The notes under the pieces were generated by a model, which was given only the letters and a program-made list of their open reading frames with translations, was not told the DNA's origin and did not search any database. Shown one piece after another: positions 36,392 through 64,000 of a DNA stretch of 64,000 nucleotides. The position numbers were made by a program, and so were the translations under genes. Position 1 is the stretch's first letter; every line of letters begins with the position of its first letter. Origin of the DNA: Candidatus Nomurabacteria bacterium (GTDB lineage: Bacteria > Patescibacteriota > Minisyncoccia > Phycocordibacterales > UBA10002). The stretch lies in NCBI GenBank assembly GCA_943349725.1, contig CALQZP010000001.1, positions 5,401 to 69,400 on the forward strand, given 5' to 3'.

Positions 36392-36648
36392 TGCTCGGCT
36401 AGAGGCGGGGAGCAAACTTATGGCTATCTCCTCAATGAACCATTCGACAAGCTCATGGCAAGCTATCTGACTCACCCATTCACCTGTCTTTACTCTCTGG
36501 GCAAAATAGTACAGGTTTTCTTATGTTCTGTCAATTATCTATGTCAGATAAGCCTATTTAGGCGTAACACACTCAAAAATATGACTTATCCACAGTCTAT
36601 ATTTGTCATAGATTTGTAACAAAAACAGATTAATGTTAGGATAGCTCC

Positions 36649-37461
36649 ATGGAAAATATACAATATGAAAAGTTTTTAGGGGAGCTTGGACTCAACAAAG
36701 AGCAGTCACTCGTCTACGAATCGCTCTTAAAAAACGGGCTTATGCCCGCTAGAGTTGTAGCCCAAAAATCAGGGGTCAAGCGAAGTCTTGCTTATAAAAT
36801 ATTAGAGCAGCTTATTTCGCTTGGTTTGGTGGAAAAAAGAGACAATATCGGGAAAATTACCCTGTTCTTCCCTGCCCACCCGGGCAAGCTTCGAGAATTC
36901 CTGCAAAAGCGCGAGGAAGCCATAAAAACCGCCGAGGCTTCGCTCGGCGGGATTATGGGGAAAATGGTGTCGGACTTTAATTTGCTTTCAGGAAAACCCA
37001 ACGTGCAATTCTACGAAGGGCCGGAGGGGATGAAAAAGGTGTTGGAAGATTCTCTTTCGGCGGAAAGTGAAATCTATTCATATTCTGATGTTATTTCGGT
37101 ACAACAATATATCCCCACTCTTAACACCGAATACATGGCCAAGCGGACCAAATTTAATGTAAAGAAAAAAATACTTTTTTTTGATTCTAAAGAAGCACGC
37201 GCTCTTCTTCCTAAAATATACAAACCGGATATCACGGAATATAAATTCATTCCGTTCAAAACGGAACCGCCTCATACTGTCATGCAAATGTATGACAAAA
37301 AAGTATCGTACATCACCCTTGCCAAAGAACAAATGATCGGCGTCATCATTGAGGACGCGAATATTTATTCACTTCATAAATATCTCTTTGAACACCAGTG
37401 GAGTACTAGTCCCGAACTCCCAATAGGAGCGGTTTCTGCGGTCGAGAAAACTCTTCAATAG
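36649..37461 (+). CDS. TrmB-family transcriptional regulator
   Basis: 270 aa; N-terminal winged HTH (LNKEQSLVYESLLKNG...ILEQLISLGLV) and TrmB-like C-terminal domain. Confidence 0.6.
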   Translation: MENIQYEKFLGELGLNKEQSLVYESLLKNGLMPARVVAQKSGVKRSLAYKILEQLISLGLVEKRDNIGKITLFFPAHPGKLREFLQKREEAIKTAEASLGGIMGKMVSDFNLLSGKPNVQFYEGPEGMKKVLEDSLSAESEIYSYSDVISVQQYIPTLNTEYMAKRTKFNVKKKILFFDSKEARALLPKIYKPDITEYKFIPFKTEPPHTVMQMYDKKVSYITLAKEQMIGVIIEDANIYSLHKYLFEHQWSTSPELPIGAVSAVEKTLQ

Positions 37462-49236: not shown

Positions 49237-50580
49237 TTAGAGGAGAGCCCGAATCTGATTAATTTCCTGAAGTAGGTTTGGGTCTTCGCGGATCTCGTTC
49301 TTTATTTTGTCGCACGAGTGGATGACTGTTGTGTGATCTCTTCCTCCAAGCCTCTGCCCAATAAGAGGGAACGAAATACTGCAGTCCTCACGGAGAATAT
49401 ACATGACAAGCTGTCTCGGCTTCACCACCTCTTTCCGACGAGTCTTCTCGTAGATGTGATTCTCGTCAATGTTGTAAAAGTCGGCGACAACCTTCGTAAT
49501 ATCCTTAATTGACAAGCTTTTCTTCGGCTTTCCGGTGTTCTTAAGAATAGCTTTTACCTCAAGTACCCCGAGGTCTCTCCCTTTCACCTGTGTCTGCATC
49601 ATAATGGAATTGAGAATTCCTTCAAGCTCTCTGATGTTCCCCTCAAGAGTTGCGGCGATGTAGTCGGCAACTTCACTTGAAAGCTCAAACCGCATAAGCC
49701 GAGCCTTGGTTTTGAGGATAGATACACGCGACTCCCTGTCCGGAGGAGGAATATCGACAATCATACCGGCCGCGAAACGGGATTTTAGACGTTCCTCAAG
49801 ATTCTGAATATAATTTGGGTGCTTGTCAGAGGAAAAGATAATTTGTTTGTTATGCGCGTAAAGGTCGTTGAATAAATGGAAAAGTTCTTCCTGACTCTTC
49901 TCTTTATTTGAAAAGAACTGGATGTCATCCATAATCAGCGCGTCATACTGACGATACTTCTCCTTAAATTGAGAGATGCGACTCTGTTGCATCGCGGTCA
50001 CAAAATCCTGGGAGAACTTTTCCGAGGTAACATAATAGATTTTTTGTCCGGGAAACGCAGTCTTGAGATGATTCCCAATAGCTTGAATAAGGTGGGTCTT
50101 GCCGTGCCCAGTCGAACCGTAGACAAAAAGAGGGTTGTAGGTAGCCCCCGGGCTTTTAATGATGGCCTGCGAGGCAGCGTGCGCGAGTTCGTTGAAAGGA
50201 CCCACGACAAACGAATCAAAGGTGTAGCGTGGGTTAAGGTTGGTCTCTTTGTCCACATAATGATCCTGGAGCGGGAGTTCGGGCGTGCGAGACGGAGCTG
50301 ATGTTTTCAAAAGTTCCCGTTTTCGGGGGTCGTCCTTGGTAACGGTATATTCAATGGAGCGGATGTGCTCGGAAAGAGTACGAAGCGAATGAAGAATCGA
50401 TTTGTGGTATTTGTTGAGCAACCAATCCTTCACAAAGGTATTTGGTACCGAAAGATGGACTACCCCCTCTTCTATGCGTGCTATCGCAGTATCTTTAAAC
50501 CACGTCGTAAAGTTCGCCTTAGAAACGGCGAGTTCAATCTCCGCAAGAGCACTTTCCCAGAGTTGTTTGGTGTCGGTCAT
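49237..50580 (-). CDS. dnaA: chromosomal replication initiator DnaA
   Basis: 447 aa; AAA+ motifs GSTGHGKTHL, box VII, C-terminal DNA-binding domain. Confidence 0.9.
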   Translation of the reverse strand: MTDTKQLWESALAEIELAVSKANFTTWFKDTAIARIEEGVVHLSVPNTFVKDWLLNKYHKSILHSLRTLSEHIRSIEYTVTKDDPRKRELLKTSAPSRTPELPLQDHYVDKETNLNPRYTFDSFVVGPFNELAHAASQAIIKSPGATYNPLFVYGSTGHGKTHLIQAIGNHLKTAFPGQKIYYVTSEKFSQDFVTAMQQSRISQFKEKYRQYDALIMDDIQFFSNKEKSQEELFHLFNDLYAHNKQIIFSSDKHPNYIQNLEERLKSRFAAGMIVDIPPPDRESRVSILKTKARLMRFELSSEVADYIAATLEGNIRELEGILNSIMMQTQVKGRDLGVLEVKAILKNTGKPKKSLSIKDITKVVADFYNIDENHIYEKTRRKEVVKPRQLVMYILREDCSISFPLIGQRLGGRDHTTVIHSCDKIKNEIREDPNLLQEINQIRALL

Positions 50581-50848
50581 AAGATAATGAAATATGGAAT
50601 ATGAACTATATAATAAGAAAGCTAATCGGATATCTTATGGTATATGGTTCATATTCCATTTCTTAGTGGTACTAGTATATACCGATAACCGAAATGCAAA
50701 ACTTGTGAAAAAACCTGTGATATGTTAATAATATGTGGACAAGTTGGGGACAAGACCATATGGACCACATAACATGGATCACGTAACATCAGGCAGTCTC
50801 AAGAAAAGTCTTGTATTCCGTGTTTCATAATTCATAATCCATTTCTTT

Positions 50849-51001
50849 ATGAGCTTCACCTACAACCCAAAAAGAAAGAAACGAGCACGAACACACGGTT
50901 TTCGCTCCCGCATGGCTACCCCCGGAGGTCGTTCGGCTCTTTCCAGACGACGCGCTAAAGGACGTAAGAAGCTTACGGTAAGTCGAAAGAAAGCCTCCTA
51001 G
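50849..51001 (+). CDS. rpmH: 50S ribosomal protein L34
   Basis: 50 aa [24 protein letters not shown]...; below the ORF-track size cutoff, found by manual translation. Confidence 0.85.
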
Positions 51002-51005
51002 GAGC

Positions 51006-51037
51006 AAAAAAGCCTGCCTGTTGGCAGGCTTTTGTTA
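51006..51037 (+). terminator. Rho-independent terminator after rpmH
   Basis: aaaaaagcctgcc tgtt ggcaggcttttgtt. Confidence 0.7.
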
Positions 51038-51064
51038 TAGGGCTTACACATTTCGCACTTTTCT

Positions 51065-51140
51065 GTCATTCCAGCGAAAGCTGGAATCCAGTGTTAGGCC
51101 ATTTTCTGAAGTCCTGGATTCCAGTTTTCACTGGAATGAC
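51065..51140. repeat. twin-hairpin palindromic element (gtcattccagcgaaagctggaatcc family), copy 2
   Basis: attccagc-GAAA-gctggaat hairpin plus ggattccag-ttttca-ctggaatgac hairpin; shares its 5' half with 2763-2817. Confidence 0.6.
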
Positions 51141-51182
51141 ACCGATTGAGCAGGTTCTATATAAGCTAAAAGCTCTCCTTCA

Positions 51183-51521
51183 ATGCTCCCCAAATCAAAA
51201 CGTCTCACCACCGAGGACTTCAAAACACTGAAGGGTGGGCGAACCACGCACACTCCCCACCTCATTCTCCGCCTCTCCCCTGCACCTGAAGGAGTGGGAA
51301 AATTTGCCGTTGTGGTGTCGTCTTCAAACTACAAACGAGCGGTTGACCGCAATCTACTTAGACGACGCCTTTACAGCCTCATTAAGAGGCTTCTCCCACT
51401 TCTCCCAAAAGGTATCCTCACCGTCACCTGTAAAAAGGGAGCACTCCTTGCGACCTTTTCGGAGTTAGAAAACGAGGTACACTCCTTGTGCGCAAAAAAG
51501 CCCACATCTACGGCAGTCTGA
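51183..51521 (+). CDS. rnpA: ribonuclease P protein component
   Basis: 112 aa basic protein, KSKRL...FAVVVSS RnpA pattern, follows rpmH. Confidence 0.8.
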   Translation: MLPKSKRLTTEDFKTLKGGRTTHTPHLILRLSPAPEGVGKFAVVVSSSNYKRAVDRNLLRRRLYSLIKRLLPLLPKGILTVTCKKGALLATFSELENEVHSLCAKKPTSTAV

Positions 51522-51573
51522 CTGCTGTAAATACTCCTTTGGTAATTTACCGATTTTGGGCTAGAATAGGGCC

Positions 51574-52308
51574 ATGTTCGCACTGCTAAAGGCGATTTTT
51601 TATATTCCCCTCTACAATGGGCTCATTTTCCTGATAGATGTCCTCCCCGGACATTCGGTCGGCATCGCGGTCATACTGTTTACCTGCCTCGTTAAACTGG
51701 TCCTCTCCCCTCTTTCCCATAAGGCGGCCAAGTTTCAGTTGGAAATGAAATTGCATGAGCCCGAGATAAATCGCCTTAAAGAACAATTTAAAGCCGACAA
51801 ACAGGCACAAGGAAAGGCAATTCTAGATTTTTACCGCGAGAAGAAGATCAATCCGTTTGCAGGTATTTTGCCCCTTTTTATACAAATTCCCATTTTCATC
51901 TCCCTTTACTATGTGTTTTATGCGGGAGGGCTTCCTTCGATAGACTCTTCCCTCCTCTATTCATTTGTAGCGGTACCTGTCCCCGATATGCATCTTTTTG
52001 GTTTCAACATTCTTGAAAAAAGCATGCTGCTCGCTGTGTTGGCGGGAGTCGCCCAGTTCCTGCAGGCGCACTATGCTATGCCCCCTGCACCGCCCAAGAC
52101 CGACACACCCTCACTTGGGAATGACCTCGCGCGCGGTATGCATATGCAGATGAAGTATGTACTCCCCGTATTTATGGTCTTTATCGCCTACGCGATAAAC
52201 GGAGCAGTTGCACTTTATTTTATAACGAGTAGTCTGTTTACCATCGCGCAGGAGCTTGTGGTGCGCAGGTCACTCAAAAAGGGCCATCCTACCCACCCTG
52301 ACAAGTAA
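51574..52308 (+). CDS. yidC: membrane protein insertase YidC (short form)
   Basis: 244 aa, five TM helices, conserved YidC core; rpmH-rnpA-yidC-jag synteny. Confidence 0.8.
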   Translation: MFALLKAIFYIPLYNGLIFLIDVLPGHSVGIAVILFTCLVKLVLSPLSHKAAKFQLEMKLHEPEINRLKEQFKADKQAQGKAILDFYREKKINPFAGILPLFIQIPIFISLYYVFYAGGLPSIDSSLLYSFVAVPVPDMHLFGFNILEKSMLLAVLAGVAQFLQAHYAMPPAPPKTDTPSLGNDLARGMHMQMKYVLPVFMVFIAYAINGAVALYFITSSLFTIAQELVVRRSLKKGHPTHPDK

Positions 52309-52402
52309 CAGATACCAATCAACGAATGAACACCAATCTACAAATACCTACAAATGAGAGATAGGAGGATTAGTAGGTATTCGTTATATTGGTACAGATT
52401 AG

Positions 52403-52912
52403 TTGATTGGTAAAAGTATGAACTCAACCGAAATCAAAAAAATCATAGAAGACTTGCTTCGCCACATGCAGATATCCGTGGAGAGTATTTCGGTATCCGA
52501 GTGTGATGGGCGAGAGTGTTTTTCGGTACAAACTCCCGACTCCAGGCTTCTCATCGGGGAAGGCGGAGTCAATCTGCTTGCCTTCAATCACCTCGTTAAG
52601 AAGATGGCCTCACCAAAAGGCTCCACAGGCGAGACCCCCACAGTCGAGGAACGAGGGAAAACCTTTTTCGTTGATGTAAACGGCTTCCAAGAAGCCGCGC
52701 TTCAGAATATCAAAAATGTAGCCAAGATAATGGGCGACCGCGCTCGGTCATTCAAGACCAGTGTAGAGCTTGATCCGATGTCTTCGTATGAGCGAATGGT
52801 TATTCACGCCTTTTTCCAAGAGGCGAAGGACCTCAAGACCGAGTCGGTAGGTGAGGGAGACAAACGAAGGGTGGTGATACGGTATGTTGAAACTGGAACA
52901 AGTGACTTGTAA
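52403..52912 (+). CDS. jag: Jag/KhpB RNA-binding protein (KH plus R3H)
   Basis: 169 aa; R3H-like C-terminus RMVIHAFFQEAKDLKTESVGEGDKRRVVI; synteny with yidC. Confidence 0.75.
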   Translation: MIGKSMNSTEIKKIIEDLLRHMQISVESISVSECDGRECFSVQTPDSRLLIGEGGVNLLAFNHLVKKMASPKGSTGETPTVEERGKTFFVDVNGFQEAALQNIKNVAKIMGDRARSFKTSVELDPMSSYERMVIHAFFQEAKDLKTESVGEGDKRRVVIRYVETGTSDL

Positions 52913-53070: not shown

Positions 53071-53802
53071 ATGGTAACTAACGGTAAAATAAGAATAAGT
53101 GAAGCAGCAAAGATACTTGGCGTATCCGTCCCTACTCTCCGTAATTGGGAAAAGTCTGGGAAACTCCGTGCAGAAAGAAGCGTTGGCAAACAACGCTATT
53201 ATAATCTTACCGACCTACAAAAATTTGTTGTTGATGTAGAGGGTTTAGGATTGATATGGGCGACGAGTGCAATACCGCAAGAACTTCCCCGTGAGTACTA
53301 TTGTGAGTCGTCGGATCGTTTTACAACTCGAGTAACAAGGATGGGCGCCGAACTTCAAAGAGATGGTCGTTTCTCCGGAGCGTTGGATTCGCTCATTACA
53401 CTAGTTGCTAGCGAAATAGGCGACAACTCTTTTGCGCACAATTTGGGCAATTGGCAAGATGTTCTGGGTATGTTCTTCGCCTACGATCTTGAAAAGAAGA
53501 TCATAGTAATAGCTGATAGAGGACAAGGTGTTAAGACAACCCTTCTGCGAGTCAGACCGTCCCTTGCCAGCGATATGGAGGCATTGAAGGTTGCTTTTAC
53601 GGAGATAATTTCCGGGAGAAACCCGGAAAAGAGAGGAAACGGATTGAAGGTTGTGCTCAGGGTGCTGGAATCACGTGAAGTAGGACTTTTTTACCGGTCT
53701 GGAATTGGAGTCGTCACTGTTCCAGTTGAGAAGCCTGGCTATCTCACGATAGGCACGGCAGATCAAAACGTACGCGGGATGTATTGTGTTATTAAGTTTT
53801 AG
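53071..53802 (+). CDS. MerR-family HTH fused to a GHKL-type (RsbW/SpoIIAB-like) ATPase/kinase domain
   Basis: N-terminus ISEAAKILGVSVPTLRNWEKSGKL is a MerR HTH; the C-terminal half has GHKL N-, G1- and G2-like boxes (EIGDNSFAHN, IADRGQGV, GNGLKV). Confidence 0.5.
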   Translation: MVTNGKIRISEAAKILGVSVPTLRNWEKSGKLRAERSVGKQRYYNLTDLQKFVVDVEGLGLIWATSAIPQELPREYYCESSDRFTTRVTRMGAELQRDGRFSGALDSLITLVASEIGDNSFAHNLGNWQDVLGMFFAYDLEKKIIVIADRGQGVKTTLLRVRPSLASDMEALKVAFTEIISGRNPEKRGNGLKVVLRVLESREVGLFYRSGIGVVTVPVEKPGYLTIGTADQNVRGMYCVIKF

Positions 53803-53809
53803 ATTTATT

Positions 53810-54127
53810 ATGCAAACAATTTATCTTAAGAAGTTCGGTAACGTCCTCGTAGGACGACCCAACGGGCAAGAAGCTTTTAATGCTCTTAGACCTGAGTTAA
53901 ATCAAGATCAGTCTGTTCAGATTGATTTTAGTGACGTACTTACTGTCAATCCTTCGTGGCTTGATGAATTTCTTACCCGCCTTGCTGATTTCAACCAGGG
54001 AAAGGTTCAATTACTTCCCACCAGTAACGCTTCTGTGCGAATAGCGCTTCCAGTGCTAGTAATGGAGCGCAAAGATTTTGTAGCTGACATAGTAAACCGG
54101 GCTATAAAAGAAATGGGACTTAAATAA
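53810..54127 (+). CDS. DUF4325 (STAS-like) domain protein
   Basis: 105 aa; IYLKKFGNVLVGRPNGQEAFNAL...VQIDFSDVLTVNPSWLDEFL matches the DUF4325 STAS-like pattern. Confidence 0.5.
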   Translation: MQTIYLKKFGNVLVGRPNGQEAFNALRPELNQDQSVQIDFSDVLTVNPSWLDEFLTRLADFNQGKVQLLPTSNASVRIALPVLVMERKDFVADIVNRAIKEMGLK

Positions 54128-54206
54128 AGTTTGGCCTCGTCCTAGTCCCCAAAGCTCGCTCTGCTCGGAAGACCTCGGCGAGGTATTAGGCGAGCCAAAC
54201 TTTATT
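54123..54206. repeat. long hairpin, family copy 2 (aataaagtttggcctcgtcct...gccaaactttatt)
   Basis: Lies between convergent genes and likely acts as a bidirectional terminator; stem sequence shared with 8362-8447. Confidence 0.65.
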
Positions 54207-55401
54207 CAGTCATCTGCAGGCTCCAGAGGGTCCCGCTCACTTTGTCGGTAAAAACCAAGAATTTGTCGTCAGTGCTCACTTGCGGGTGCGTGAGGTCAAT
54301 CGGACTTCCCCGCTTCTCGCTAATATCTAAGATTCGCTCGGTAACTCCCGAAGGTGAAATACTCCACACCTCGTCGGTAAAGGGGATGACCCCTTGATAC
54401 CACACGTCAGGATAGCTTCCAGTGGGGATTTCCTTGGGGACGCCACAATAAAATATGGTCCCGCCTTTGTTCCACGCGCATTTTTCGGGGAAGGTGGTCA
54501 CGCCGACCTGTGTACGCGCGCCGGTTGTCATATTGAAGAGTGAGAGCGAGATGGAAGCTTCCCTGCTTGAGGAAAAGAGTACTTCAGGTTTGACCGGATT
54601 GGGGAGCGCGGTAAGGCCGGGGGTATTGCGGAGCACAAGTGAGGTGTTACCGGTGCCGGGGTCGAGCGAGAGAAGCATACCGTCGGCCAAGAACGAAGGC
54701 TTCGAAAGCAAAAAGATTTTGTTTTGAGATGGCCATAGGACGAGCCATTCATAAAGGGGCGAGTCCCAAAGCTGTGTTCTCCCGTTTCCCGCAAGGTCGC
54801 TTCTAATTCCTATGGCCCCTCCATTTTTCTCGGTGAGGTAAAAAAAGCTCGTTCCGTCGGGAGAGACAGCTCCATCGAGTATTCCGCGCGGGAGAAAGGT
54901 TCCGGCAAGCTCTCCTTCTGCCCCGGATGCTTCGAGGTTGACGCGTGCCGAGAAGGATTCAATCACCTCACTATCGTCGCGAAGATATCGTGAGATGAGG
55001 GTGGTACCCGATTTACTCCACAGCGCTTCATAGACCTTCGGAATGGTCGTATTCGTGAGGCGCTTCTCCCCTTCCGCATTTGCGCCTATTTCAAAGATAT
55101 TTCCGGTGGCCCTGTCCTGATAGCGGACAATCGCCTCGCCACTCCGTACTCCCAGCACCGCTCCTGCGGTCGGTTCTTTGGAGAGTTGTCGCAAGATAGG
55201 CTCAAACGCCCCCGGTTTTTCTTCGGGGAGCACCACGGGAGGCTCTTGTTTGGGCGTAACTTCGTCGCCTACCCCCGGAAAGGTGCCTCCGCCATCTGGC
55301 GAAACCGGCTCCTTGGTAAACAGGAAATACAGAAAGATACCGAGGGCTACCAAGAGGAGCACCACAACGACCCCTATGATGATTTTAGTTCTTCGGGACA
55401 T
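54202..55401 (-). CDS. N-terminally membrane-anchored protein with beta-propeller-like (PD40/TolB-like) ectodomain
   Basis: 399 aa, one TM helix, Pro-rich linker, repetitive beta-rich segments. Confidence 0.35.
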   Translation of the reverse strand: MSRRTKIIIGVVVVLLLVALGIFLYFLFTKEPVSPDGGGTFPGVGDEVTPKQEPPVVLPEEKPGAFEPILRQLSKEPTAGAVLGVRSGEAIVRYQDRATGNIFEIGANAEGEKRLTNTTIPKVYEALWSKSGTTLISRYLRDDSEVIESFSARVNLEASGAEGELAGTFLPRGILDGAVSPDGTSFFYLTEKNGGAIGIRSDLAGNGRTQLWDSPLYEWLVLWPSQNKIFLLSKPSFLADGMLLSLDPGTGNTSLVLRNTPGLTALPNPVKPEVLFSSSREASISLSLFNMTTGARTQVGVTTFPEKCAWNKGGTIFYCGVPKEIPTGSYPDVWYQGVIPFTDEVWSISPSGVTERILDISEKRGSPIDLTHPQVSTDDKFLVFTDKVSGTLWSLQMTE

Positions 55402-55412
55402 GTGTTAGATGA

Positions 55413-56417
55413 CTACGGTTGGCCGATTTTAGTACAATCCGTCGCTCTAGTAGGACCAACTGCAGTGTTGTACTTGGCGCAGAGCGACTTTAACGCGGTG
55501 ATGAATTCGGCCTGTACCTCTTGAGCTTTGGCGGGAAAACCAAGACGGTTAAGTTCCTGGACCTCCACATCTCGTTTCTTTCCCATTTCCTCAATTCCTT
55601 CCAGGAAAATCCTATTTGCGCCGTCTATACTTGGATTCGCATCTATCTGGTACTCATAATTTTTGGCCTGAAGATTTATTCGCGCCTTAGCGGCTACTAC
55701 ATCCGCATCTACTGCTTTACGAAGCAAGCTCGCACGGAGGGTTTCAAGCTCAGTCTTCTTCTTTGCAAAGGCGAGAATCTCCGCTTGAGTTGCTGTCGGG
55801 TTTCTCATATTTTCCTCTAATTTCCAAATGGCATCCGCGGCTTCCATCGCTTTCGCTTTCGCAATTTTTGCATCAATGACATTGGGTTTTGCATTTTCCG
55901 TTTTCAAGTCGGACAGAAGCTTATCCAGCACTTTGCTGTAGTGCTCTTCCGGATTGTCCACCACTTGCAACGTTGCATCTACTTTTTGCACGGTTACCCG
56001 ATCGAAGTTGAGCGATAGGTCAAGGTCGCTTCCGAGCGACGGACTAATCTGGTTCATAAAGATAAAGGAGCCGTAGACGATGACAACTCCCCCAATCGCC
56101 CGCAGGATAATGCCCTTCGCCTCGCTGTGCCCAAGAATGGAGTCGGTGAAGATAAGGGTAAAGCCTCCGCGGACAATCGCGAAAACGGCAAAAAAGCCGG
56201 CAAGTGCGACACCGACATTGTAGATAGTGCGGAGGTAGCGAGGGAAGCAGGTGGGGGCGACACATTCGGTATCCTTGGTAAACTCTGAGCCGGGGGCGTT
56301 AATCGGGGCAAGCGGGATATAGTTCACCTGGGTCGCATAAGCAATAGGAACCTCCACCTTCCCTATCGCGGAGAGGACTGCTATGACACAAAGGCTGTAA
56401 ATAAATATCGTTTTCAT
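55413..56417 (-). CDS. secreted/membrane protein with signal peptide, two TM helices and long coiled-coil tail (pilin/VirB2-like N-terminus, speculative)
   Basis: 334 aa; signal peptide ending AYA, hydrophobic pair VGVALAGFFAVFAIV / GGVVIVYGSFIFM. Confidence 0.35.
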   Translation of the reverse strand: MKTIFIYSLCVIAVLSAIGKVEVPIAYATQVNYIPLAPINAPGSEFTKDTECVAPTCFPRYLRTIYNVGVALAGFFAVFAIVRGGFTLIFTDSILGHSEAKGIILRAIGGVVIVYGSFIFMNQISPSLGSDLDLSLNFDRVTVQKVDATLQVVDNPEEHYSKVLDKLLSDLKTENAKPNVIDAKIAKAKAMEAADAIWKLEENMRNPTATQAEILAFAKKKTELETLRASLLRKAVDADVVAAKARINLQAKNYEYQIDANPSIDGANRIFLEGIEEMGKKRDVEVQELNRLGFPAKAQEVQAEFITALKSLCAKYNTAVGPTRATDCTKIGQP

Positions 56418-56426
56418 ACAACTTTT

Positions 56427-57470
56427 TTATCGCGTAAGTGTCGGGTCAAACTGAAACCCCTTTAACGGAAACTCAATCATAAGATTCGCGTCGGTTGCTT
56501 GAAACGCTCGCTTGTCATCTGAACTACGTGCTTCAAGGAAGAGGCTTGTTCGCCCGGGGGCATCGGAGGTACGTCGCAAAATGATGAACGGGTCCTTTGA
56601 AGATTCAAGGGGGGTGTAGTTCATTTGCCACTCGTAGACCATATCCTTACTTCCTCGCGTGCCCGACGTTTCAAAATAGTAGGGAACGGCGTCTATGCGA
56701 GCCTCATCTTCCTCAAGCGAAAAGGTACTGCCGAGAGCCTTTTGAAGCAACAGGCCATAGCGAGGGTGGTTTTCGTAGAACAACAAACGAGGAGACACGG
56801 GGTCTACTGTGATACTCGCCTCCGCGGACATCGTTCGGTCCGGACTTTCCACCAAGACGGAAATGGTTTTTGGTCGCATAGGAACGGCTCCGCGGAACGG
56901 GAAAAGATTTTTGCCTTTTCCTGATGAGCCACCAATAACATCATCTCCCTCTTTCCAGGTATAAATGAGTGACTCCGGAGCCATCGTTGACCTTCCCTGC
57001 GCAAAGGTAGGAACCGCTGTTACCATTACCGTGCCTTGAAAGGGCATAAGCGCCTTTCCGCGATAAAACGGAGGGGTGTAGGACTGCGCCTGCCACAGGA
57101 GATTTACTTCCGCCGGACGAATAACCGTATCTTTTGAATAGGTATTGCCGTTTTCGGCTATTGCCGCGACACGCACGATGGTGGTTTCCCCATTCCGACC
57201 TGCGCGGACGACGAGCTTTTTGTAACCCACAGCGGTTTTGACGGGGCGGTCGTTTACAAACCAGTGCACCTCCGAGCGGTTAAGGTCAAAGTTGTAGCTT
57301 TCAATGGAAACGGTCACCTCTTCTCCCGGGCGTGGGTAGGCTGGGGAAATCACCATCGTGAGTTCTGTCCCTGTGTTTCCCACTTGGGCAAAAGAAGGAT
57401 GTGCCCCGACAACAAGGTCAAAAAGAAAAAGAGTAGCTAAAAAGAAAGATGTGAGAATCTTACGATGCAT
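56427..57470 (-). CDS. secreted hypothetical protein
   Basis: 347 aa, N-terminal signal peptide, beta-rich. Confidence 0.4.
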   Translation of the reverse strand: MHRKILTSFFLATLFLFDLVVGAHPSFAQVGNTGTELTMVISPAYPRPGEEVTVSIESYNFDLNRSEVHWFVNDRPVKTAVGYKKLVVRAGRNGETTIVRVAAIAENGNTYSKDTVIRPAEVNLLWQAQSYTPPFYRGKALMPFQGTVMVTAVPTFAQGRSTMAPESLIYTWKEGDDVIGGSSGKGKNLFPFRGAVPMRPKTISVLVESPDRTMSAEASITVDPVSPRLLFYENHPRYGLLLQKALGSTFSLEEDEARIDAVPYYFETSGTRGSKDMVYEWQMNYTPLESSKDPFIILRRTSDAPGRTSLFLEARSSDDKRAFQATDANLMIEFPLKGFQFDPTLTR

Positions 57471-57518
57471 AGCGTATAGTATACCTTGTATTTACACTTT
57501 TTTCTGTGCACATCCTCT

Positions 57519-59096
57519 TTAGGGGAGCTTCTCTCCCCTCAGTACTGCTTTAATGACGTGGGCCAGCTCATTTTTGAGCTTCTTCTCGGTTTTCTTCACC
57601 GCTTCTTTAAGGCCTTCTTTAAGACCAGAGATGTTTCCGGTTGTTTTCTGTCCGCCTTGCGTTGAAACATCTGCTTCTATAGGTTTTGTCTGTTGCGCGG
57701 ATGAGATTGACGCGGTGGGGGTAGTATCATTTCCACTCTTCTGGTTCCCTGGGGAGCTTGTGGCGGTTTGAGCCGCTCCATTTGTTGTTGCTCCCGCAGG
57801 AGTCTGGGTTGGCGCACTTCTTTTTTCTTCAGGCTTACTATTTTGAGTTTGCGGAATAGGTTGTGGTGCTGTTTGTGCGGGAGGCGGTGTGTTTTGTGTT
57901 TGCGCTGGTGCGGGTGAAGCAGTGGCCGGTGCTCTCGTAGGAGTTGTTTGTGCTGGAGGCGTGGTTGCTTGTGGTTTTGTTTCGGTAGGTTGCGGTAAGG
58001 AGGTTTCAGCACCCTTTGCTTGAGCTCCCTGCGGACGTGCAGGCGGTTTCTGGCTTTGTGGAAGCGGTGGTGGGCTTGGTCTCCTCGGTGCGCTGTTTTC
58101 TGGTGACGGTGTTGATACAGGAGCCGTTCCAGGTTCTTGTCTAGCGGGTTCCGGGCTCGACTTATTCGCTGTAGGTGCCTGCCCTAATGGAGTTGGCGGG
58201 GGTTGTACTGTGGAAACTTTCGGACTCTCCCGCTTTGTTTCTGGTGCTTCTGCCTGCGAAGGTGACCGTGGAGTCTGCACTGTGTCGGAGCTGTGCGGTG
58301 CCATTTCCGCGGTTGAGTTTTGCGGTGGAACAATCGGAGATTGTGGTTGTCTAAACACCGGCTGTGCGCCAATGTCCTGATTTGGTGTTGCAGAAGGAGC
58401 TTGCCCCGTGGAAGAGTCTTGGTGGCGTGCAGGATGGTTAGCAGTTACGGGGCTTGAAGCGCCTCCCGTTTCGGCGACACGGTGAGTTTGCTGTGTACTT
58501 TCTTGTCCCCCATGCGATACGCTTCCCGCACTCCCCACAGCACCTCCGCTTGTTGCCTCGGTTGCCTGTGGAGCGCGAAGGTTAAGAGTGTTGTGTGTTT
58601 CTCCTCCACCACCCTCCTTCTTTTCCGCTTTATCCGCTTTCTCACTCTCCGACCTTTGAGAATGAGCGAGACTTAGACCTCCCTGCGTCCTCGCTGCGAG
58701 AGCCTTTGATGCTAGGGTACCAAGTGGCCCCGCTTTCTCTAGCAGTTCCTCGGCACGTGTCGTCGCGAAGAGCACAAGTACCGCTACGGTCCATGTGGGT
58801 AAGATTCCGCCAATGGGTACGACTTTGACAAGAAGCGCCAGCGGGAATGTCATAATACGCTTCACGCCAACGAAATTTACGCCGTGCAATTTGAACCACA
58901 CATAGAAGGTGAGCCATGCCCAGATAGAAACCAGCACACCAACCATGAGGTTTATTGTGGAAGTAAGCAAATTCAAAAGCGGGATAAAGTCCAGCAATTT
59001 CGGGGCAGCAACTATAACATCAAACAGCAGTGCAACCGCTCCCATAAGCACAATTGTGGGAATGCTGATTCTGTGTTTTGCGGGGGTTGAGGGCAC
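57519..59096 (-). CDS. polytopic membrane protein with long Pro/Thr/Ala/Gln-rich disordered C-terminal region (VirB6/TrbL-like candidate)
   Basis: 525 aa; 4-5 TM helices in the first 120 residues, then low-complexity PQ/PT/PA repeats. Confidence 0.4.
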   Translation of the reverse strand: MPSTPAKHRISIPTIVLMGAVALLFDVIVAAPKLLDFIPLLNLLTSTINLMVGVLVSIWAWLTFYVWFKLHGVNFVGVKRIMTFPLALLVKVVPIGGILPTWTVAVLVLFATTRAEELLEKAGPLGTLASKALAARTQGGLSLAHSQRSESEKADKAEKKEGGGGETHNTLNLRAPQATEATSGGAVGSAGSVSHGGQESTQQTHRVAETGGASSPVTANHPARHQDSSTGQAPSATPNQDIGAQPVFRQPQSPIVPPQNSTAEMAPHSSDTVQTPRSPSQAEAPETKRESPKVSTVQPPPTPLGQAPTANKSSPEPARQEPGTAPVSTPSPENSAPRRPSPPPLPQSQKPPARPQGAQAKGAETSLPQPTETKPQATTPPAQTTPTRAPATASPAPAQTQNTPPPAQTAPQPIPQTQNSKPEEKRSAPTQTPAGATTNGAAQTATSSPGNQKSGNDTTPTASISSAQQTKPIEADVSTQGGQKTTGNISGLKEGLKEAVKKTEKKLKNELAHVIKAVLRGEKLP

Positions 59097-59212
59097 GATT
59101 GTAAAGAAGCTTTTAGCTACTAGGTTTTAGGTTCTAGGAGCAGAATAGGAGCAGAAAGCGTAGCATCCGAGGCACTTCCTGTTGCTAGAAGCTAGCACCT
59201 AGAAGCTTGCGG

Positions 59213-62200
59213 CTATTCCTTCCCTTCCGCCGCCTTCAGCTCATCCTTTGCAGCCTTGATGGAGAGGAGTTGCGACGGGTCGGAGGTAATGATTTGGTCT
59301 TCGGTATAGGAAGCAATGATTTTGATGGCGACATGCTTGAGGCCCACGAAGAAGAGCCCCTCCCCTACGTCAGATTCAAGCAGGAGATATTTCTCTTCAT
59401 CCGTTAGGCTGAAAATAGTTTGGAGCTTGTCCACCACCGTTGGCGATTGCTTGAGGAGCATCTGCATTGAGGAGTTGGTGAGAATGGGGAGTCCATAGGG
59501 CGACTTCAAAAAGTCGTCCACGTCTTGAGTAATAGTAGAAAGACCGAGGTAGTATTTGCGTCCACGTTTCGCAAGGCCAAGAAGGAACGAAGCGGTGTCC
59601 TCCGATTTCATCATCCACCACGCCTCATCAATCACCATCAAACGTTTCTTGAGCTCCTTTCTGATGGAGTTCCAGATGAAGTGCATTACGATATACATTG
59701 CGGCAGGCTTCAGCTCATCTTCCATATCGCGGAGTGAAAAGACGATAAAGTTTGAATTGATGTCCACGTTTGACGGTTGGTTGATAAAGCCCGCCCACGT
59801 GCCGTGCGTATATTTGGAAAGACGCTGTACAAGCGACTCGGCTCCTTGGATTCCCGCAAGCACCAATTCAAAGTCGGAAAGAAGCGGTGGCTCTATTTTT
59901 GAGAAATCAGAGTCGGGAGTAATGTCCTTCAGCGCGTAAGTTTCGGCAATGGCGCGGTCAATCATCGCGTCTTCCTCCGCGGAAAGCCCTCCGAGGAGAA
60001 TGCGAAATAGTCCCACCAGGTTGATGATGTTTGAGCGTAGCACGTCAGCCGGAGATTCGTCTTCTCTTGGGGGCGCAAGCTCAAAAGGGTTGATATGGTG
60101 CTCCGAGTTGAGTGAGATGTTGAAGTATTTTCCGCCTGTTGCCTCCGCGAGGTATTCATACTCGCGTTCGGGGTCAATGACAATCACGTCCGTGCCGAAC
60201 ATCAGTGAGCGCAAAATCTCAAGCTTGGTCATATACGAGTTATGCACGAACATACCGCCATATCCCGCTAAGAATACTTCGTTATCCACCGTTAAATCAT
60301 AGACATATCGTTCCGTTTTGTTTGTGAAAGGTTCAATCGCCACAATCTCGTCCCACGCGAGGTCTGCAGTCGCCAACTTCTCCAGTCGCACGAGTAGCTC
60401 CCGCACACGAGGAATGTTGTTGCATAAGGAATGGTAACGGGCAGAAATGAAGGAGGACGCCTGCGTCAGCATTTCATAAGAGGTGTTGGCTTCAGGGTGG
60501 ATATGAAGGGCTGTTCGAAGTGAAGGGTTATGATACTTCATTGGCTCGCCTAAGAATTCGAATCCCTCGCTTATCGCTTCTTTGAGCTCGGGTAGTCTGG
60601 GTACGTCAATTCCCATACAGGAAAGAGCGGTAACGGCATTTGCCATTCCGGGCATCTTTCCTTTTTTCATTGTCGCAAAGCTTGAGCCGAGTTCTTTCCA
60701 TAGCAGGGCGTTTACGGCTTTGCTCTGCTTTGCCACTTTTATAATATCCGCAATGGTAGGCAATCCAGTGAGAACCCTGAAAAGAGCCCGCTTTGATTCA
60801 ATGTCCCGTATCACCATTCGTATGTCGGCAATGACTAGTTTTAACTGCCTCGGTGATGGGTTAAAGACACCACGTTTGAGGGGACTCCAATTCTTTCGGC
60901 CACGCATCGCTTTGCCGAGAAGCGCGTCAATTTCTTGAAAGAGTGGAGGAAGTCCGGGAATGATATCTACATTCGTATTTTCGGCTCGCTTCAATGTAAG
61001 CAACATCCCTTTTTTTCGTTCCGATATGAAATTGATATGTTCTCGAAATGACGACAGATTCTTCTGCCCCGATATGGTGAGCAACGAATAGTCCTCCTTA
61101 GATTTTCCGGGTATGAGCTTTTTCCTTACCGCCAAACGACTGATGACGCCAAAGTTATACAGCAAGTAGCAGAGGTCGGAGGTAAGCATTCTTGATTTTG
61201 AGACTGCGGTTATGGTCGGTCCGTCCACTCCGCCGTCACCCTCAAAATAGGCAGAGAGGAAAGCCGTCTGCGCGTTTCGTGGGCTTTCAAAAATGATGGA
61301 AGGAACTCGTTTGGTTGCCGATTTTTCTTGTAATCCGATTATGGCGAGAAACTTTACGAAAATAATATCGCTTATAACCACACTTTTCGGTGTAAGGAAA
61401 TGTTGCACTTCCAAAGTGGTAAGAGCCGTACAAACGTCCTGTATCACTTCAGGGTCAATGTTGCTTATAATCGCAACCTTCTTTCCTATAGTCCCTTCGG
61501 ACACCAAATACCCAAGTATTTTTGCAAGTGCGGGAGTGACGGTATAGAACGCGGGTAGCTTTCCTGTCCCGCTCGCGGAGATAATGAAGCACTGTGCTAG
61601 GCGAGCGTCGGTTATCTCAAGAGAAAGGCAGGCAAGTAGTTTGCGAAAATAGGAGATTGGTACGCGCCTTCCGGCGGCATACTTGTAAAGATAGCGGTCA
61701 AATCGTGAGTCAATAACCTCTGTCCTAAGCAAGCGTCTGTATTCCACCATAAGCGGTGCGACTCCGGTAACATATACACGCGAGTCCGCCATATGTTTTA
61801 GTAGATTGAGTGTGAGTGGAGAGGTTGTGCCGTTCTTTACTTCTCGTGGCAAGGGTACATATTCACCTAGACCGATATCCGCGCTCTTGGTGGCAACCAC
61901 TTCTCCCTTCCGAAGCACCAGCATATTATGGTCGCCTGTAGTTTCCACCACACGACCACTGCGAGTTTTGAAACGGTACAGTTCTTGCGGAGCGTCTTTT
62001 CGTGCCGCAACCGTTACTCTGCTCCACGTGCCCTTCATCTCTTTATCAAAGCTCCATACTTCAAGTCCTGGGTCAATAACCCCTTCTAGTTCGTGGTCAA
62101 TTTGCATCACCCCACGTTCCAAAATTGCTTCCTCAACAATATCCCCGATCGGCCGAAGTAACACTCGGTCATTTTTTCGCATGAGCACAGGTTCGTGACC

Positions 62201-63016
62201 AAGAATGCTCTTGCCCGAACCTGATTTAGCTAGGGTGATTGAGTTGTAGTTCTCCAAACTGAAGCGGTCAAAGAGAACAAGGGAAGCGTTGTGACGGTTG
62301 ATGCCGTAGAGAATGCCCTTGTTGGAAGTAAGGTCAAACGAGAGAAACGGAAACACGCTTGAAAGTGGAGAAGAGTTGAGCTTCGTGTGCACCATAAGCT
62401 CGTCGTTGCCAAGCGGAGAGGTGGAACGAAATCCTTGCTCCTGCTGAAAGAGAGCCGGTTTCATAATGACGAGTTTGCTTTCAAGAAGCGAGCGTATTTC
62501 ACTCTCGGTCTTATCAAGCTCGTTCTCATCTCCCGCATAGATGGTGAGATAAATACCGACATCAAAAAGCTTTTCCTGCGCCTGCAGAAGGTCATCACGA
62601 AGTTTCTCAAGGTCTTGGTAGGCTGTCTCAAGCATCGGGTCGCGTACGAGCCCCTTCTTCTCACGGTCCGCCATTTGACTCTGGACCTCCGCTACTTTTT
62701 TCTGGAAGGTGCGCAGTACCTTGGCGGTATCCACCGGGTGAATAAAGATACTGATGTCAAAAACCTTATCAAGATTGATAATGGGCGCGAACCAGCCTTC
62801 GGTGAGGTAACGGGGGTAGGAAATGACAAAGAATGTTCGCGTCATCTTCCCGCTCACGTTGAGCGACTTCGCCTCTATCTTGAGAGCCGCGGGGGCGATG
62901 ACATCTTGGAGTTCAAGCGTGCCAGATTGGTAAATCTGCTCGGGGAGAAATTCCGCGATATCCTTGTCCGCTTTTTTCTTGTTGAAGAAATTAAAAAACC
63001 CCATAATGTTTACCAA
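59213..63016 (-). CDS. VirB4/TraC-family conjugation/T4SS ATPase interrupted by an intein
   Basis: 1267 aa; Walker A AKSGSGK|S is split, and rejoining gives GSGKSYMTKLE; Walker B MVIDEAWWMM lies in the C-extein. Confidence 0.75.
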   Translation of the reverse strand: MVNIMGFFNFFNKKKADKDIAEFLPEQIYQSGTLELQDVIAPAALKIEAKSLNVSGKMTRTFFVISYPRYLTEGWFAPIINLDKVFDISIFIHPVDTAKVLRTFQKKVAEVQSQMADREKKGLVRDPMLETAYQDLEKLRDDLLQAQEKLFDVGIYLTIYAGDENELDKTESEIRSLLESKLVIMKPALFQQEQGFRSTSPLGNDELMVHTKLNSSPLSSVFPFLSFDLTSNKGILYGINRHNASLVLFDRFSLENYNSITLAKSGSGKSILGHEPVLMRKNDRVLLRPIGDIVEEAILERGVMQIDHELEGVIDPGLEVWSFDKEMKGTWSRVTVAARKDAPQELYRFKTRSGRVVETTGDHNMLVLRKGEVVATKSADIGLGEYVPLPREVKNGTTSPLTLNLLKHMADSRVYVTGVAPLMVEYRRLLRTEVIDSRFDRYLYKYAAGRRVPISYFRKLLACLSLEITDARLAQCFIISASGTGKLPAFYTVTPALAKILGYLVSEGTIGKKVAIISNIDPEVIQDVCTALTTLEVQHFLTPKSVVISDIIFVKFLAIIGLQEKSATKRVPSIIFESPRNAQTAFLSAYFEGDGGVDGPTITAVSKSRMLTSDLCYLLYNFGVISRLAVRKKLIPGKSKEDYSLLTISGQKNLSSFREHINFISERKKGMLLTLKRAENTNVDIIPGLPPLFQEIDALLGKAMRGRKNWSPLKRGVFNPSPRQLKLVIADIRMVIRDIESKRALFRVLTGLPTIADIIKVAKQSKAVNALLWKELGSSFATMKKGKMPGMANAVTALSCMGIDVPRLPELKEAISEGFEFLGEPMKYHNPSLRTALHIHPEANTSYEMLTQASSFISARYHSLCNNIPRVRELLVRLEKLATADLAWDEIVAIEPFTNKTERYVYDLTVDNEVFLAGYGGMFVHNSYMTKLEILRSLMFGTDVIVIDPEREYEYLAEATGGKYFNISLNSEHHINPFELAPPREDESPADVLRSNIINLVGLFRILLGGLSAEEDAMIDRAIAETYALKDITPDSDFSKIEPPLLSDFELVLAGIQGAESLVQRLSKYTHGTWAGFINQPSNVDINSNFIVFSLRDMEDELKPAAMYIVMHFIWNSIRKELKKRLMVIDEAWWMMKSEDTASFLLGLAKRGRKYYLGLSTITQDVDDFLKSPYGLPILTNSSMQMLLKQSPTVVDKLQTIFSLTDEEKYLLLESDVGEGLFFVGLKHVAIKIIASYTEDQIITSDPSQLLSIKAAKDELKAAEGKE
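60239..62209 (-). mobile_element. intein (about 657 aa) with double-LAGLIDADG homing endonuclease inside the VirB4 P-loop
   Basis: Ser1 directly after the GSGK; block B TTGDHNMLVL; LAGLIDADG motifs ILGYLVSEGT and LSAYFEGDGGV; C-terminal ...FVHN followed by Ser+1. Confidence 0.7.
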
Positions 63017-63045
63017 TCAACTAATCTGTACCAATCTACTAATAC

Positions 63046-63480
63046 CTACGAATCTGACTCTCCTGGCTTGCGTGCCCCGTAGGCAACGCGGATAACACGG
63101 TGAGATCGAACATAAGTTCCTCCGAAATTAACAATGATACCCAATTGAATACCGGTTGCTTGCAAGTATCGCTGTATCTGATCATAATCCCCACTCGCCA
63201 CAAAAGGTTTCGCTTTCAATTCTAAGATGATCTTATCTTCAATTAAGAAGTCAAGAATGTTGTTCGTATCTCCAATTCTAAGCTCTCGCTTGTAGGTGAT
63301 GCCGTTTTCTTTGAGTTTTTGCTCCAGTAAGTCCGCGTATTGTTTTTCTCGAGAAAACTTTCCGATTTCATTATGAACAGTGTAACAGAGACCAACCATA
63401 TCGAAAGAAAGGTCGGGATAGAGAAGTCCTAGTCCTTTTTTCGCGTTCTTATTTGTAGGTATTTGCAGATTGGTGTTCAT
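63046..63480 (-). CDS. GxxExxY-family protein (PD-(D/E)XK-like)
   Basis: 144 aa; HNEIGKFSREKQYADLLEQKL, ILELKA, GIIVNFG motifs. Confidence 0.65.
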   Translation of the reverse strand: MNTNLQIPTNKNAKKGLGLLYPDLSFDMVGLCYTVHNEIGKFSREKQYADLLEQKLKENGITYKRELRIGDTNNILDFLIEDKIILELKAKPFVASGDYDQIQRYLQATGIQLGIIVNFGGTYVRSHRVIRVAYGARKPGESDS

Positions 63481-63494
63481 TCGTAGATTGGTAT

Positions 63495-63941
63495 TTAATT
63501 AGTAGATACGGTTTTTTCCGTCTCCCCCGGATTGAACAGCTGATAAAAGAGATCTACTACCTCCTCGGTCCCGAGTTGTGCAACCCTGACACCTGTTCGT
63601 ACCAATCCTTGTTCCACAACCGACACACGCTGTTCAAGCTGGGTACGTTGTTCGTCAAAGCTCTTCTGTTTTTCCGCTTCCGTATGCTTCCCTCCCCCGA
63701 ACCCGTCTTTAATACGCATCGTGATACCCCCGGCTCCACTGCTCAAATCTACGATGGCGGACGAGTAGGGCACGACAATGAAGAAACTCTTGTTCATAAT
63801 GTTCGTCCCCTCGGTAAATTTCTTGATGAAACCGATGTACTCGTGAGTCTGCAATTTAAGCAGTTCGTTCTTCTGACCTTTCAGACGCTCTTCAAGCGTC
63901 GCGATATACGGCCTGATATTGAACCGTCGAGACTGGACCAC
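63495..63941 (-). CDS. hypothetical protein
   Basis: 148 aa ORF at the end of the T4SS-like cluster; the region continues to the window edge. Confidence 0.35.
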   Translation of the reverse strand: MVQSRRFNIRPYIATLEERLKGQKNELLKLQTHEYIGFIKKFTEGTNIMNKSFFIVVPYSSAIVDLSSGAGGITMRIKDGFGGGKHTEAEKQKSFDEQRTQLEQRVSVVEQGLVRTGVRVAQLGTEEVVDLFYQLFNPGETEKTVSTN

Positions 63942-64000
63942 AATTTGTGTGGAAAAGTCTAGCGAGTTTAAGAAGTTTTGAAATTGGGAAATGATGGCCT

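Follow-up and report, generated by a model that had tools for sequence, protein, structure and literature searches.

We analyzed a 64,000-nt window of the genome of a Candidatus Nomurabacteria bacterium (contig CALQZP010000001.1, positions 5,401 to 69,400), which contains seven consecutive minus-strand open reading frames (ORF1 to ORF7) between positions 54202 and 63941, separated by intergenic gaps of 9 to 116 nt (Table 1). An original prediction had read these ORFs as seven genes forming a minimal conjugation or type IV secretion system (T4SS) of the reduced type carried by candidate phyla radiation (CPR) bacteria. The assignment to a reduced T4SS-like locus was confirmed by homology of the products to VirB4, TrsD, PrgI/VirB3, and VirB2-like pilins and by synteny in about 80 species genomes. 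The locus is a true T4SS operon, and it adds an example to a system that is known and was described recently; it is not a new system. All seven ORFs are real, but the cluster runs on past the window edge. DNA beyond the window end was obtained from ENA contig ERZ27280297 k141_995313 (89.9 kb, designated L001), which differs from the reverse complement of the window by one mismatch in 10,955 bases, adds 9.5 kb past the window end, and contains at least six further co-directional genes. The seven-ORF cluster corresponds to the downstream half of a larger conserved operon with about 11 genes, for which the term 'minimal' is misleading; this operon is about twice the size visible inside the window and has its 5' boundary well beyond it.

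The VirB4-like ATPase recognized in the original prediction held up on alignment. The product of ORF5 matched NCBIfam NF045971 (VirB4-like conjugal transfer ATPase, CD1110 family) with an E-value of 2.5e-101 and 340 bits, above the curated cut-off of 325, as well as Pfam P-loop_TraG (1e-20) and the TraC-F-type and VirB4_CagE families. Its extein, i.e. the protein freed of the intein described below, which had gone unmentioned, matched the VirB4 C-domain 4AG5 (1.7e-42) and R388 TrwK (1.2e-4) in the PDB. The start codon of virB4 is most likely the ATG at 63004, giving 1263 residues (the length of database entry P0210), rather than the TTG at 63016. The extein was used as a query to collect related loci, of which 579 were found in GTDB species genomes. 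Counts out of 80 given below refer to the best 80 of these loci (74–93% VirB4 identity), which belong to Taylorbacteria, Zambryskibacteria, Kaiserbacteria, Nomurabacteria, and other Paceibacteria.

ORF7, previously described as a small protein of 148 residues starting at 63941, is truncated where the window stops. Its frame stays open up to that edge, and the full gene, encoding 216 residues, starts 145 nt past the window end. The complete protein matched the NCBIfam families VirB4_plasma (1.7e-11, profile positions 103–242), CD1110 (9.3e-8, profile positions 2–119), and TrsD/TraD (1.1e-5), and the precomputed annotation assigned it to PF26593 (TraC-like). Judged from these matches, ORF7 encodes a predicted TrsD-like homologue of the N-terminal part of VirB4. 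The alternative that virB4 had been split by insertion of the intervening GxxExxY gene (ORF6) was rejected, since the TrsD-like protein is encoded by a separate gene adjoining virB4 in 79 of the 80 related loci and is a separate gene in the literature.

Upstream of trsD, the gene order is a 23S_rRNA_IVP gene, the PrgI/VirB3 gene, a second IVP gene, and the genes designated U3, U2, and U1. U2 matched TrbL_4 with an E-value of 7e-5, below the Pfam cut-off, two of 25 U2 homologues matched TrbL/VirB6 at 1.3e-5, and the family profile matched the R388 VirB6 protein TrwI with an E-value of 0.8. U2 is thus the best, weakly supported VirB6 candidate of the locus, and in its architecture it conforms to the 'extended VirB6' type of a recent review (PMC12857230). 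U1 and U3 gave no match in Pfam, NCBIfam, and further family searches, and a profile search of the PDB was also empty for U1. The N-terminal domain of U1 (L001 3–830; ~250 residues, cysteine-containing, with the motif WINSGF-G-P-F-TNP) is present in 56–57 related loci and has no match among Pfam, NCBIfam, or PDB sequences; U1 homologues vary in their C-terminal parts, one of which contains an F5/8 type C domain.

The product of ORF2 had been described as pilin-like, with a signal peptide, two transmembrane (TM) helices, and a coiled-coil tail. It contains a signal peptide, a pilin domain (residues ~31–128) with two hydrophobic helices, and a variable tail of ~200 residues, and aligned with its syntenic homologues over the signal peptide, a Y-x-P-L motif, and the two hydrophobic helices. 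PF18895 (T4SS_pilin) was matched by 24 of the 25 aligned sequences (best E-value of 2.4e-10), all except the window copy, and TrbC/VirB2 by three. A hidden Markov model built from 24 homologues matched the window protein with 66 bits (E-value of 7e-20), the sole match among 513 window ORFs. The identification of ORF2 as a putative VirB2-like pilin is therefore supported. The resemblance of the tail to coiled coils was weak (E-value of about 1 or above), and a profile search of the PDB returned nothing for the pilin.

Structure prediction with AlphaFold2 provided folds for two further products. ORF3, previously a 'secreted protein', does begin with a helix (signal peptide or anchor), which is followed by three tandem Ig-like beta-sandwich domains (pLDDT 91.9, pTM 0.80). 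Foldseek matched these domains to Hoc, sidekick, the S-layer protein SbsB, and the grappling hook protein GhpA (1e-9 to 1e-6), and the family profile matched Hoc in the PDB at 3.9e-4. ORF3 was present in 69–75 of the 80 related loci. Its candidacy as a VirB8-like protein was rejected, the predicted structure being Ig-like and not an NTF2 fold. For ORF1, the anticipated anchored beta-propeller was recovered: a TM helix (residues 3–29) and a low-confidence linker of ~35 residues precede the propeller (pLDDT 91.4, pTM 0.81), for which the best Foldseek matches were oligogalacturonate lyase, TolB, and WD40 propellers (1e-10 to 1e-8); the family profile matched TolB in the PDB at 0.014. ORF1 was syntenic in 57–59 of the 80 loci. 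The locus thus supplies predicted folds for two unannotated accessory proteins, one membrane-anchored and triple Ig-like and the other a membrane-anchored beta-propeller.

The PT/PQ-rich product of ORF4, directly downstream of virB4, had been proposed as the VirB6-like component. This assignment was rejected: the protein has no match in Pfam, NCBIfam, or PHROGs, its conservation is limited to a core of ~125 residues (residues ~10–135, with about four predicted TM helices), and its tail is lineage-specific. The 15 homologues detected were 113–339 residues long (median 168). The C-terminal ~390 residues, within 57519–58700, are a PT/PQ/A-rich low-complexity tail, which is short or absent in the relatives. 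U2, beyond the window, is the better VirB6 candidate. The profile searches proposed in the original prediction for VirB2, VirB3, VirB6, and VirB8 led to ORF2, to PrgI beyond the window, and, weakly, to U2, and to no protein for VirB8.

Gene order was compared among the related loci. The order U1, U2, U3, PrgI, TrsD, VirB4, (small membrane protein), ORF3, ORF2, ORF1 was conserved on one strand and was followed downstream of ORF1 by yidC, rnpA, and rpmH on the other strand and then by dnaA. Genes in the same order and on the same strand were detected for U1 in 56 of the 80 loci, U2 in 60, U3 in 45, PrgI in 76, TrsD in 79, ORF3 in 75, ORF2 in 26–49, and ORF1 in 59; yidC followed in 56 loci and dnaA in 53. 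Farther upstream in the relatives lie a gene for a membrane protein of ~300 residues (44 loci) and then genes for KsgA (46 loci) and a helicase (35 loci), putatively UvrD-like from its DEYQDT motif. Operon linkage outlasts rearrangement: in locus L073, the ORF3 homologue is relocated between U1 and U2 and still linked, and in a complete Nealsonbacteria genome the pilin gene is upstream and a 396-codon beta-propeller gene (recognized by Pfam families only) lies beside virB4 on the opposite strand. Across the 80 loci, median identity to the window proteins was 77% for the VirB4 extein, 60% for DnaA, 45% for YidC, and 36% for RnpA, and the envelope proteins of the operon were ~31% identical across the same genomes. 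The identity of VirB4, above that of DnaA and YidC, indicates unusually strong constraint, i.e. strong purifying selection on the ATPase. The GC content of the operon was not distinct from that of its flanks.

In the window, the operon adjoins the replication-origin gene set, with dnaA at 49237–50580 and rpmH, rnpA, yidC, and jag on the plus strand across 50849–52912. The divergent dnaA (minus strand) and rpmH (plus strand) genes are separated by a spacer of ~270 nt (50580–50849), which is likely the oriC neighbourhood, ~3.4 kb from the end of the T4SS operon. The 3' end of the operon is marked by an imperfect 84-nt inverted repeat between the convergent stop codons of a STAS-like gene (plus strand) and ORF1. 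Its RNA fold (-40.9 kcal/mol, z = -3.6) was equalled by one of 200 shuffles, and because of this fold strength and its position between convergent stop codons, the hairpin looks like a terminator. It had been taken to bound the whole cluster; it does so at the 3' end, and the 5' boundary lies beyond the window. A scan for promoters and terminators gave a result no different from that of shuffled sequence. A cassette at the same junction in a close relative prompted the idea that the hairpin might be left over from an IVP cassette, which was rejected since no sequence similarity was found. Between jag and the operon end lies a two-gene module (53071–54127, plus strand) encoding a 243-residue protein with a MerR-type helix-turn-helix (HTH) and, overlapping it, the 113-residue STAS-like protein (DUF4325). 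The C-terminal part of the former matches no assigned family; its PADLOC match (mad1, 1.1e-9) is confined to the HTH and was the exception among PHROGs and PADLOC searches of the cluster proteins, which gave no other matches. The pair was found in none of the 80 related loci.

Table 1. Features of the T4SS operon and of the cassettes. Positions refer to the window unless a contig or locus (L001, L083) is named.
Feature	Position	Strand	Description
Hairpin	54123-54206		Terminator-like; 3' boundary of the operon
ORF1	54202-55401	-	399 aa; TM helix, linker, and beta-propeller; last gene of the operon
ORF2	55413-56417	-	334 aa; signal peptide, putative VirB2-like T4SS pilin domain, variable tail
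ORF3	56427-57470	-	347 aa; N-terminal helix and three tandem Ig-like domains (predicted)
ORF4	57519-59096	-	525 aa; ~125-aa membrane core and ~390-aa PT/PQ-rich tail
ORF5 (virB4)	ORF 59213-63016; likely gene 59213-63004	-	Precursor of 1263 aa; NF045971, 4AG5
virB4 intein	60239-62209	-	657 aa; residues 270-926 of the 1267-aa ORF
GxxExxY cassette	63011-63493	-	483 nt; inverted repeats of 43 nt at 63451-63493 and 63011-63053
ORF6 (GxxExxY)	63046-63480	-	144 aa; PD-(D/E)XK gene inside the cassette
ORF7 (trsD-like)	63495-64000 (63495-63941 in the ORF list); full gene L001 9336-9986	-	C-terminal 168 codons in the window; full protein of 216 aa
IVP cassette	L001 8822-9328	operon sense	Four-helix-bundle 23S_rRNA_IVP
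PrgI/VirB3	L001 8406-8813		PF12666 PrgI, 37 bits (cut-off 27); 668 nt beyond the window end
Second IVP cassette	L001 7909-8402	operon sense
U3			564 aa; no family match
U2	L001 2445-6188		1247 aa; polytopic, C-terminal part a long coiled coil
U1			First operon protein seen, >812 aa; no family match
Further cassettes	L083 16054-16524 and 18950-19375		T4SS operon junctions

The virB4 gene is interrupted by an intein inserted in the Walker A motif. Its boundaries (insertion points marked by slashes) are AKSGSGK/SILGHE and GMFVHN/SYMTKLE (GK/S and HN/S), and it matched Pfam Intein_splicing (1.6e-16), LAGLIDADG_3 (2.6e-14), and the intein ends TIGR01445 and TIGR01443. S270 as nucleophile, a TTGDH sequence (block B, TxxH), VHN/S (Ser+1), and both LAGLIDADG motifs (LGYLVSEG and YFEGDGG) were read from the sequence. 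The joined exteins form an ATPase of ~606 residues with an intact Walker B motif (MVIDEAW), and its Walker A motif (AKSGSGKS) is re-formed by conceptual splicing. This spliced protein is 93% identical (561/606) to the intein-free orthologue of the closest genome (L003), with a gapless and identical alignment across the junction. The precursor would have to excise the intein to become active, splicing and homing both being predicted.

The intein was considered to be a rare insertion, a possibility that was rejected. The best 80 loci are intein-free, yet a protein search revealed intein-bearing VirB4 homologues in at least 120 protein clusters from several candidate phyla, all of ~1260 residues and containing intein, LAGLIDADG, and P-loop_TraG domains (top 120 inspected). 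A regular-expression check of the junctions in these 120 detected GK/S in at least 41, HN/S in at least 84, and both in 99. The apparent rarity arose because the ranking of related loci favours contiguous matches and hence intein-free loci. Thus, the Walker A intein is common in VirB4 of Paceibacteria. It resembles inteins of other P-loop ATPases, including five VirB4 inteins, in being class-1-type, in carrying a LAGLIDADG endonuclease, and in residing in a secretion-system P-loop NTPase (Novikova et al., 2016, Table 3; PMC4760082). It differs from these five, which were from Firmicutes and Proteobacteria, by its host lineage (Patescibacteria) and its Ser1/Ser+1 chemistry. The allele is often annotated just as 'LAGLIDADG family homing endonuclease', as in at least six named entries for intein-bearing VirB4, and name-based surveys may therefore overlook such interrupted virB4 genes.

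The second insert is the GxxExxY gene. Its product was correctly identified in the original prediction (PDDEXK_3, 5.8e-19; TIGR04256, 2e-18); its membership of the cluster did not stand. The gene lies in a cassette that is bounded by inverted repeats and separates the stop codon of trsD from the start of virB4, which are 2 nt apart in L003, and a GxxExxY gene was found near virB4 in one of the 80 related loci, at a different junction. The GxxExxY gene is a selfish inserted cassette and no T4SS subunit. A group I intron hosting the gene was rejected as an explanation, since Rfam finds no intron in the window and the flanking sequence of the ORF amounts to 14 and ~40 nt. Beyond the window, both IVP genes are likewise bracketed by inverted repeats, of 24–25 nt, bringing to four the selfish inserts in or near the operon. 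The terminal stems of all three cassettes close in both minimum free energy and centroid folds, and in 13 of 14 cassettes from related loci the flanking complementarity exceeded the 95th percentile of a control set of 373 genes. In a close relative that shares the intein, other junctions are occupied by cassettes, whose arms differ in sequence and are nonetheless complementary and periodic. In T4SS operon junctions, IVP and GxxExxY cassettes are always sense-oriented, and the occupied junction differs among genomes; the sequence of the repeats (24–43 nt) varies from copy to copy, with complementarity kept, and is built of short periodic units.

These cassettes are reminiscent of the intervening sequences (IVSs) of 23S rRNA that encode S23p/IVP ORFs in Coxiella and Leptospira (PMC4990558). 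Both consist of ~480–510 nt with a terminal stem enclosing one small ORF, and two of the three cassettes of this locus encode the same 23S_rRNA_IVP four-helix-bundle family. In Coxiella, the IVS (428–444 nt) contains an S23p ORF, has a terminal stem of 28 bp, and is cut out by RNase III (PMC4990558). Unlike IVSs, the cassettes lie between protein-coding genes and not in rRNA helices (Rfam detected no rRNA in the window), and one of them carries a GxxExxY PD-(D/E)XK gene. We tentatively consider, as a possibility somewhat on the doubtful side, that the cassettes form a class of IVS-like mobile elements of ~0.5 kb with IVP or GxxExxY cargo in conserved operons and, separately, that the pilin tail is displayed for host binding. 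Such cassettes would colonize intergenic junctions of essential, highly conserved operons in sense orientation only. The stem would help the host to tolerate them through a predicted excision from the mRNA by RNase III; alternatively, it would join the upstream stop to the downstream start and keep translational coupling. If true, the IVS phenomenon of 23S rRNA would extend to protein-coding operons. As to the pilin, the long variable tail may be displayed along the pilus as a host-binding surface in T4SSs of Paceibacteria. The prevalence of the intein and the stem-bracketed cassettes are the least documented aspects of the locus; the sections consulted of the survey of Patescibacteria T4SSs discussed below (PMC12102498) mention neither the VirB4 intein nor the IVP and GxxExxY cassettes.

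The accumulation of inserts raises the question of whether selfish insertions have disabled the operon and left a non-functional remnant in decay, the candidates being the Walker A intein, the cassette between trsD and virB4, and the runaway tail of ORF4. The presence of four inserts and the separation of trsD from virB4, otherwise 2 nt apart, would fit such a decay. However, every ORF is intact, the intein retains Ser1, the TxxH block, the terminal HN, Ser+1, and both LAGLIDADG motifs, and the extein is 93% identical to its closest intein-free orthologue, with an identical junction. In addition, the intein alleles are maintained in the clusters and candidate phyla enumerated above, and cassettes occur in many related, otherwise intact operons. 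We regard a remnant as extremely improbable.

The organization of the locus is that of the T4SSs described in Patescibacteria (Quinonero-Coronel et al., 2025; PMC12102498). That survey reports a VirB4 clade related to the mating-pair-formation (MPF) class MPF-FATA, abundant TrsD, PrgI/VirB3, VirB6, and VirB2-like pilins near virB4, scarce relaxases, type IV coupling proteins (T4CPs) usually encoded elsewhere, and a location close to dnaA, dnaN, rnpA, rpmH, and ksgA. In the present locus, VirB4 with intact Walker A and B motifs, an adjacent TrsD-like gene, PrgI/VirB3, and a VirB2-like pilin were all found, and U2 is a weak candidate for the VirB6-like polytopic protein; dnaA, rpmH, and rnpA adjoin the locus, ksgA lies upstream in relatives, and neither a relaxase nor a coupling protein was found in the ~74 kb inspected. 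The conserved accessory genes for the Ig-like, beta-propeller, and small membrane proteins go unnamed in the sections of the survey consulted, and a search of it for the term 'propeller' found nothing. Southlakia epibionticum (SEML1_0006–0019) requires its T4SS and the T4SS pilins for epibiotic growth (Wang et al., 2023; PMC10633639), and neither a coupling protein nor a relaxase is recognizable (PMC10633639; PMC12857230). Unlike Saccharimonadia, which have an array of short pilins, the operon described here contains one pilin gene with a long C-terminal tail.

The Gram-positive MPF-FATA systems (pCF10 Prg/Pcf, pGO1 Trs, and CTn2 CD1110) share with the locus the VirB4 family, PrgI/VirB3, a TrsD-type N-domain protein, and a monoderm architecture without an outer-membrane core. 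They differ in that a relaxase, a T4CP, a VirB8-like (NTF2-fold) protein, and a VirB1-like hydrolase were not recognized here, in that a VirB2-like pilin is present here and lacking in Gram-positive systems (PMC12857230), and in that the locus is chromosomal, vertically conserved, and origin-linked. The shared components could indicate that the operon is the mating-pair-formation module of a conjugative element (an integrative and conjugative element, ICE, or a plasmid) exporting DNA to recipients as in pCF10, ICEBs1, and CTn2. The best VirB4 family is indeed named for conjugal transfer, Gram-positive conjugation systems contain PrgI and TrsD, and the lineage derives from MPF-FATA conjugation machinery according to PMC12102498. 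The original prediction had recommended looking for a coupling protein or relaxase past the window end. None was detected in the operon, in the 9.5 kb beyond the window, in the ten largest other ORFs of the window, or in the precomputed Pfam annotation of loci L083 and L085, which argues against conjugation; an integrase was likewise absent from the operon, the 9.5 kb upstream, and the large window ORFs. The fixed chromosomal site between ksgA and yidC-rnpA-rpmH-dnaA in dozens of species is also unlike a mobile element, the GC content matches that of the flanks, and Patescibacteria rarely have relaxases (109 in the dataset; PMC12102498). Conjugation is therefore, in our view, very unlikely.

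A machine for DNA uptake, similar to the ComB T4SS of Helicobacter or the archaeal Ced system and supplying host DNA as a source of nucleotides or for transformation, would require neither a relaxase nor a T4CP. It would suit CPR bacteria devoid of de novo nucleotide synthesis (review, PMC12857230), and VirB4 weakly matched the DNA import protein CedB (NF041017, 1.5e-7, far below the cut-off), although the match spans the shared P-loop region only. In the class ABY1, T4SS loci co-localize with comF, recG, and radA (PMC12102498). Competence genes were not found beside the present operon. Competence of S. epibionticum requires ComEC, and the bacterium survives deletion of comEC, whereas its T4SS is essential (PMC12857230). 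The essential role is therefore not ComEC-dependent DNA uptake, and we consider this function unlikely for the operon.

Because no relaxase or coupling protein lies nearby, we favour a non-conjugative, epibiotic role. The locus is probably a chromosomal, origin-proximal T4SS operon typical of Paceibacteria, derived from MPF-FATA and serving the epibiotic lifestyle, and its product is most likely a channel or pilus that is non-conjugative and works at the host interface. VirB4, TrsD, VirB3, and VirB6 would form a membrane translocon, and the pilin would build a pilus-like or channel-lining structure across the wall. The Ig-like and propeller proteins would scaffold the machine or anchor it in the envelope or against the host cell. 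The assembly would carry proteins or other molecules into or out of the host cell rather than conjugate.

Several points weigh against this interpretation. The inspected DNA amounts to ~74 kb of the genome, and a relaxase or coupling protein could lie elsewhere; T4CP homologues are far from virB4 in many genomes, as reported in PMC12102498. The function is deduced wholly from homology and synteny and from studies of another class (Saccharimonadia). Neither a VirB8-like (NTF2-fold) protein nor a VirB1-like hydrolase was recognized among the operon proteins, a remote VirB8 among the unassigned ones being possible. The VirB6 call for U2 is weak, with a sub-cut-off match, TrbL families in three of 25 members, and the marginal TrwI match. 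The window pilin searched alone against Pfam gave no match, and the model presumes that a pilin with a C-terminal extension of 200 residues polymerizes. Intein splicing and transcription as an operon are themselves predictions. With S. epibionticum as the one genetically tested member in which the Patescibacteria T4SS is essential for epibiotic growth, the locus represents a well-resolved version from Paceibacteria, with a conserved operon of ~11 genes, that sharpens the parts list and leaves the basic picture unchanged.

Outside the operon, the window contains a PilB-like T2SSE ATPase gene with an MshEN domain (24859–26571, plus strand; 5e-122), indicating that machinery for type IV pili is encoded in this genome as well, in line with reports on other Patescibacteria. 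A 490-residue protein (41550–43022, plus strand) with Schlafen/AlbA_2 and HATPase_c_4 domains and weak pAgo-associated PADLOC matches (~1e-8) may be the product of a defence gene. The region 36000–40300 has a GC content of 0.40–0.43, compared with ~0.48 elsewhere, a strong negative GC skew (-0.21), and a minus-strand ORF of 964 codons whose sole recognized part is a GNAT acetyltransferase domain.

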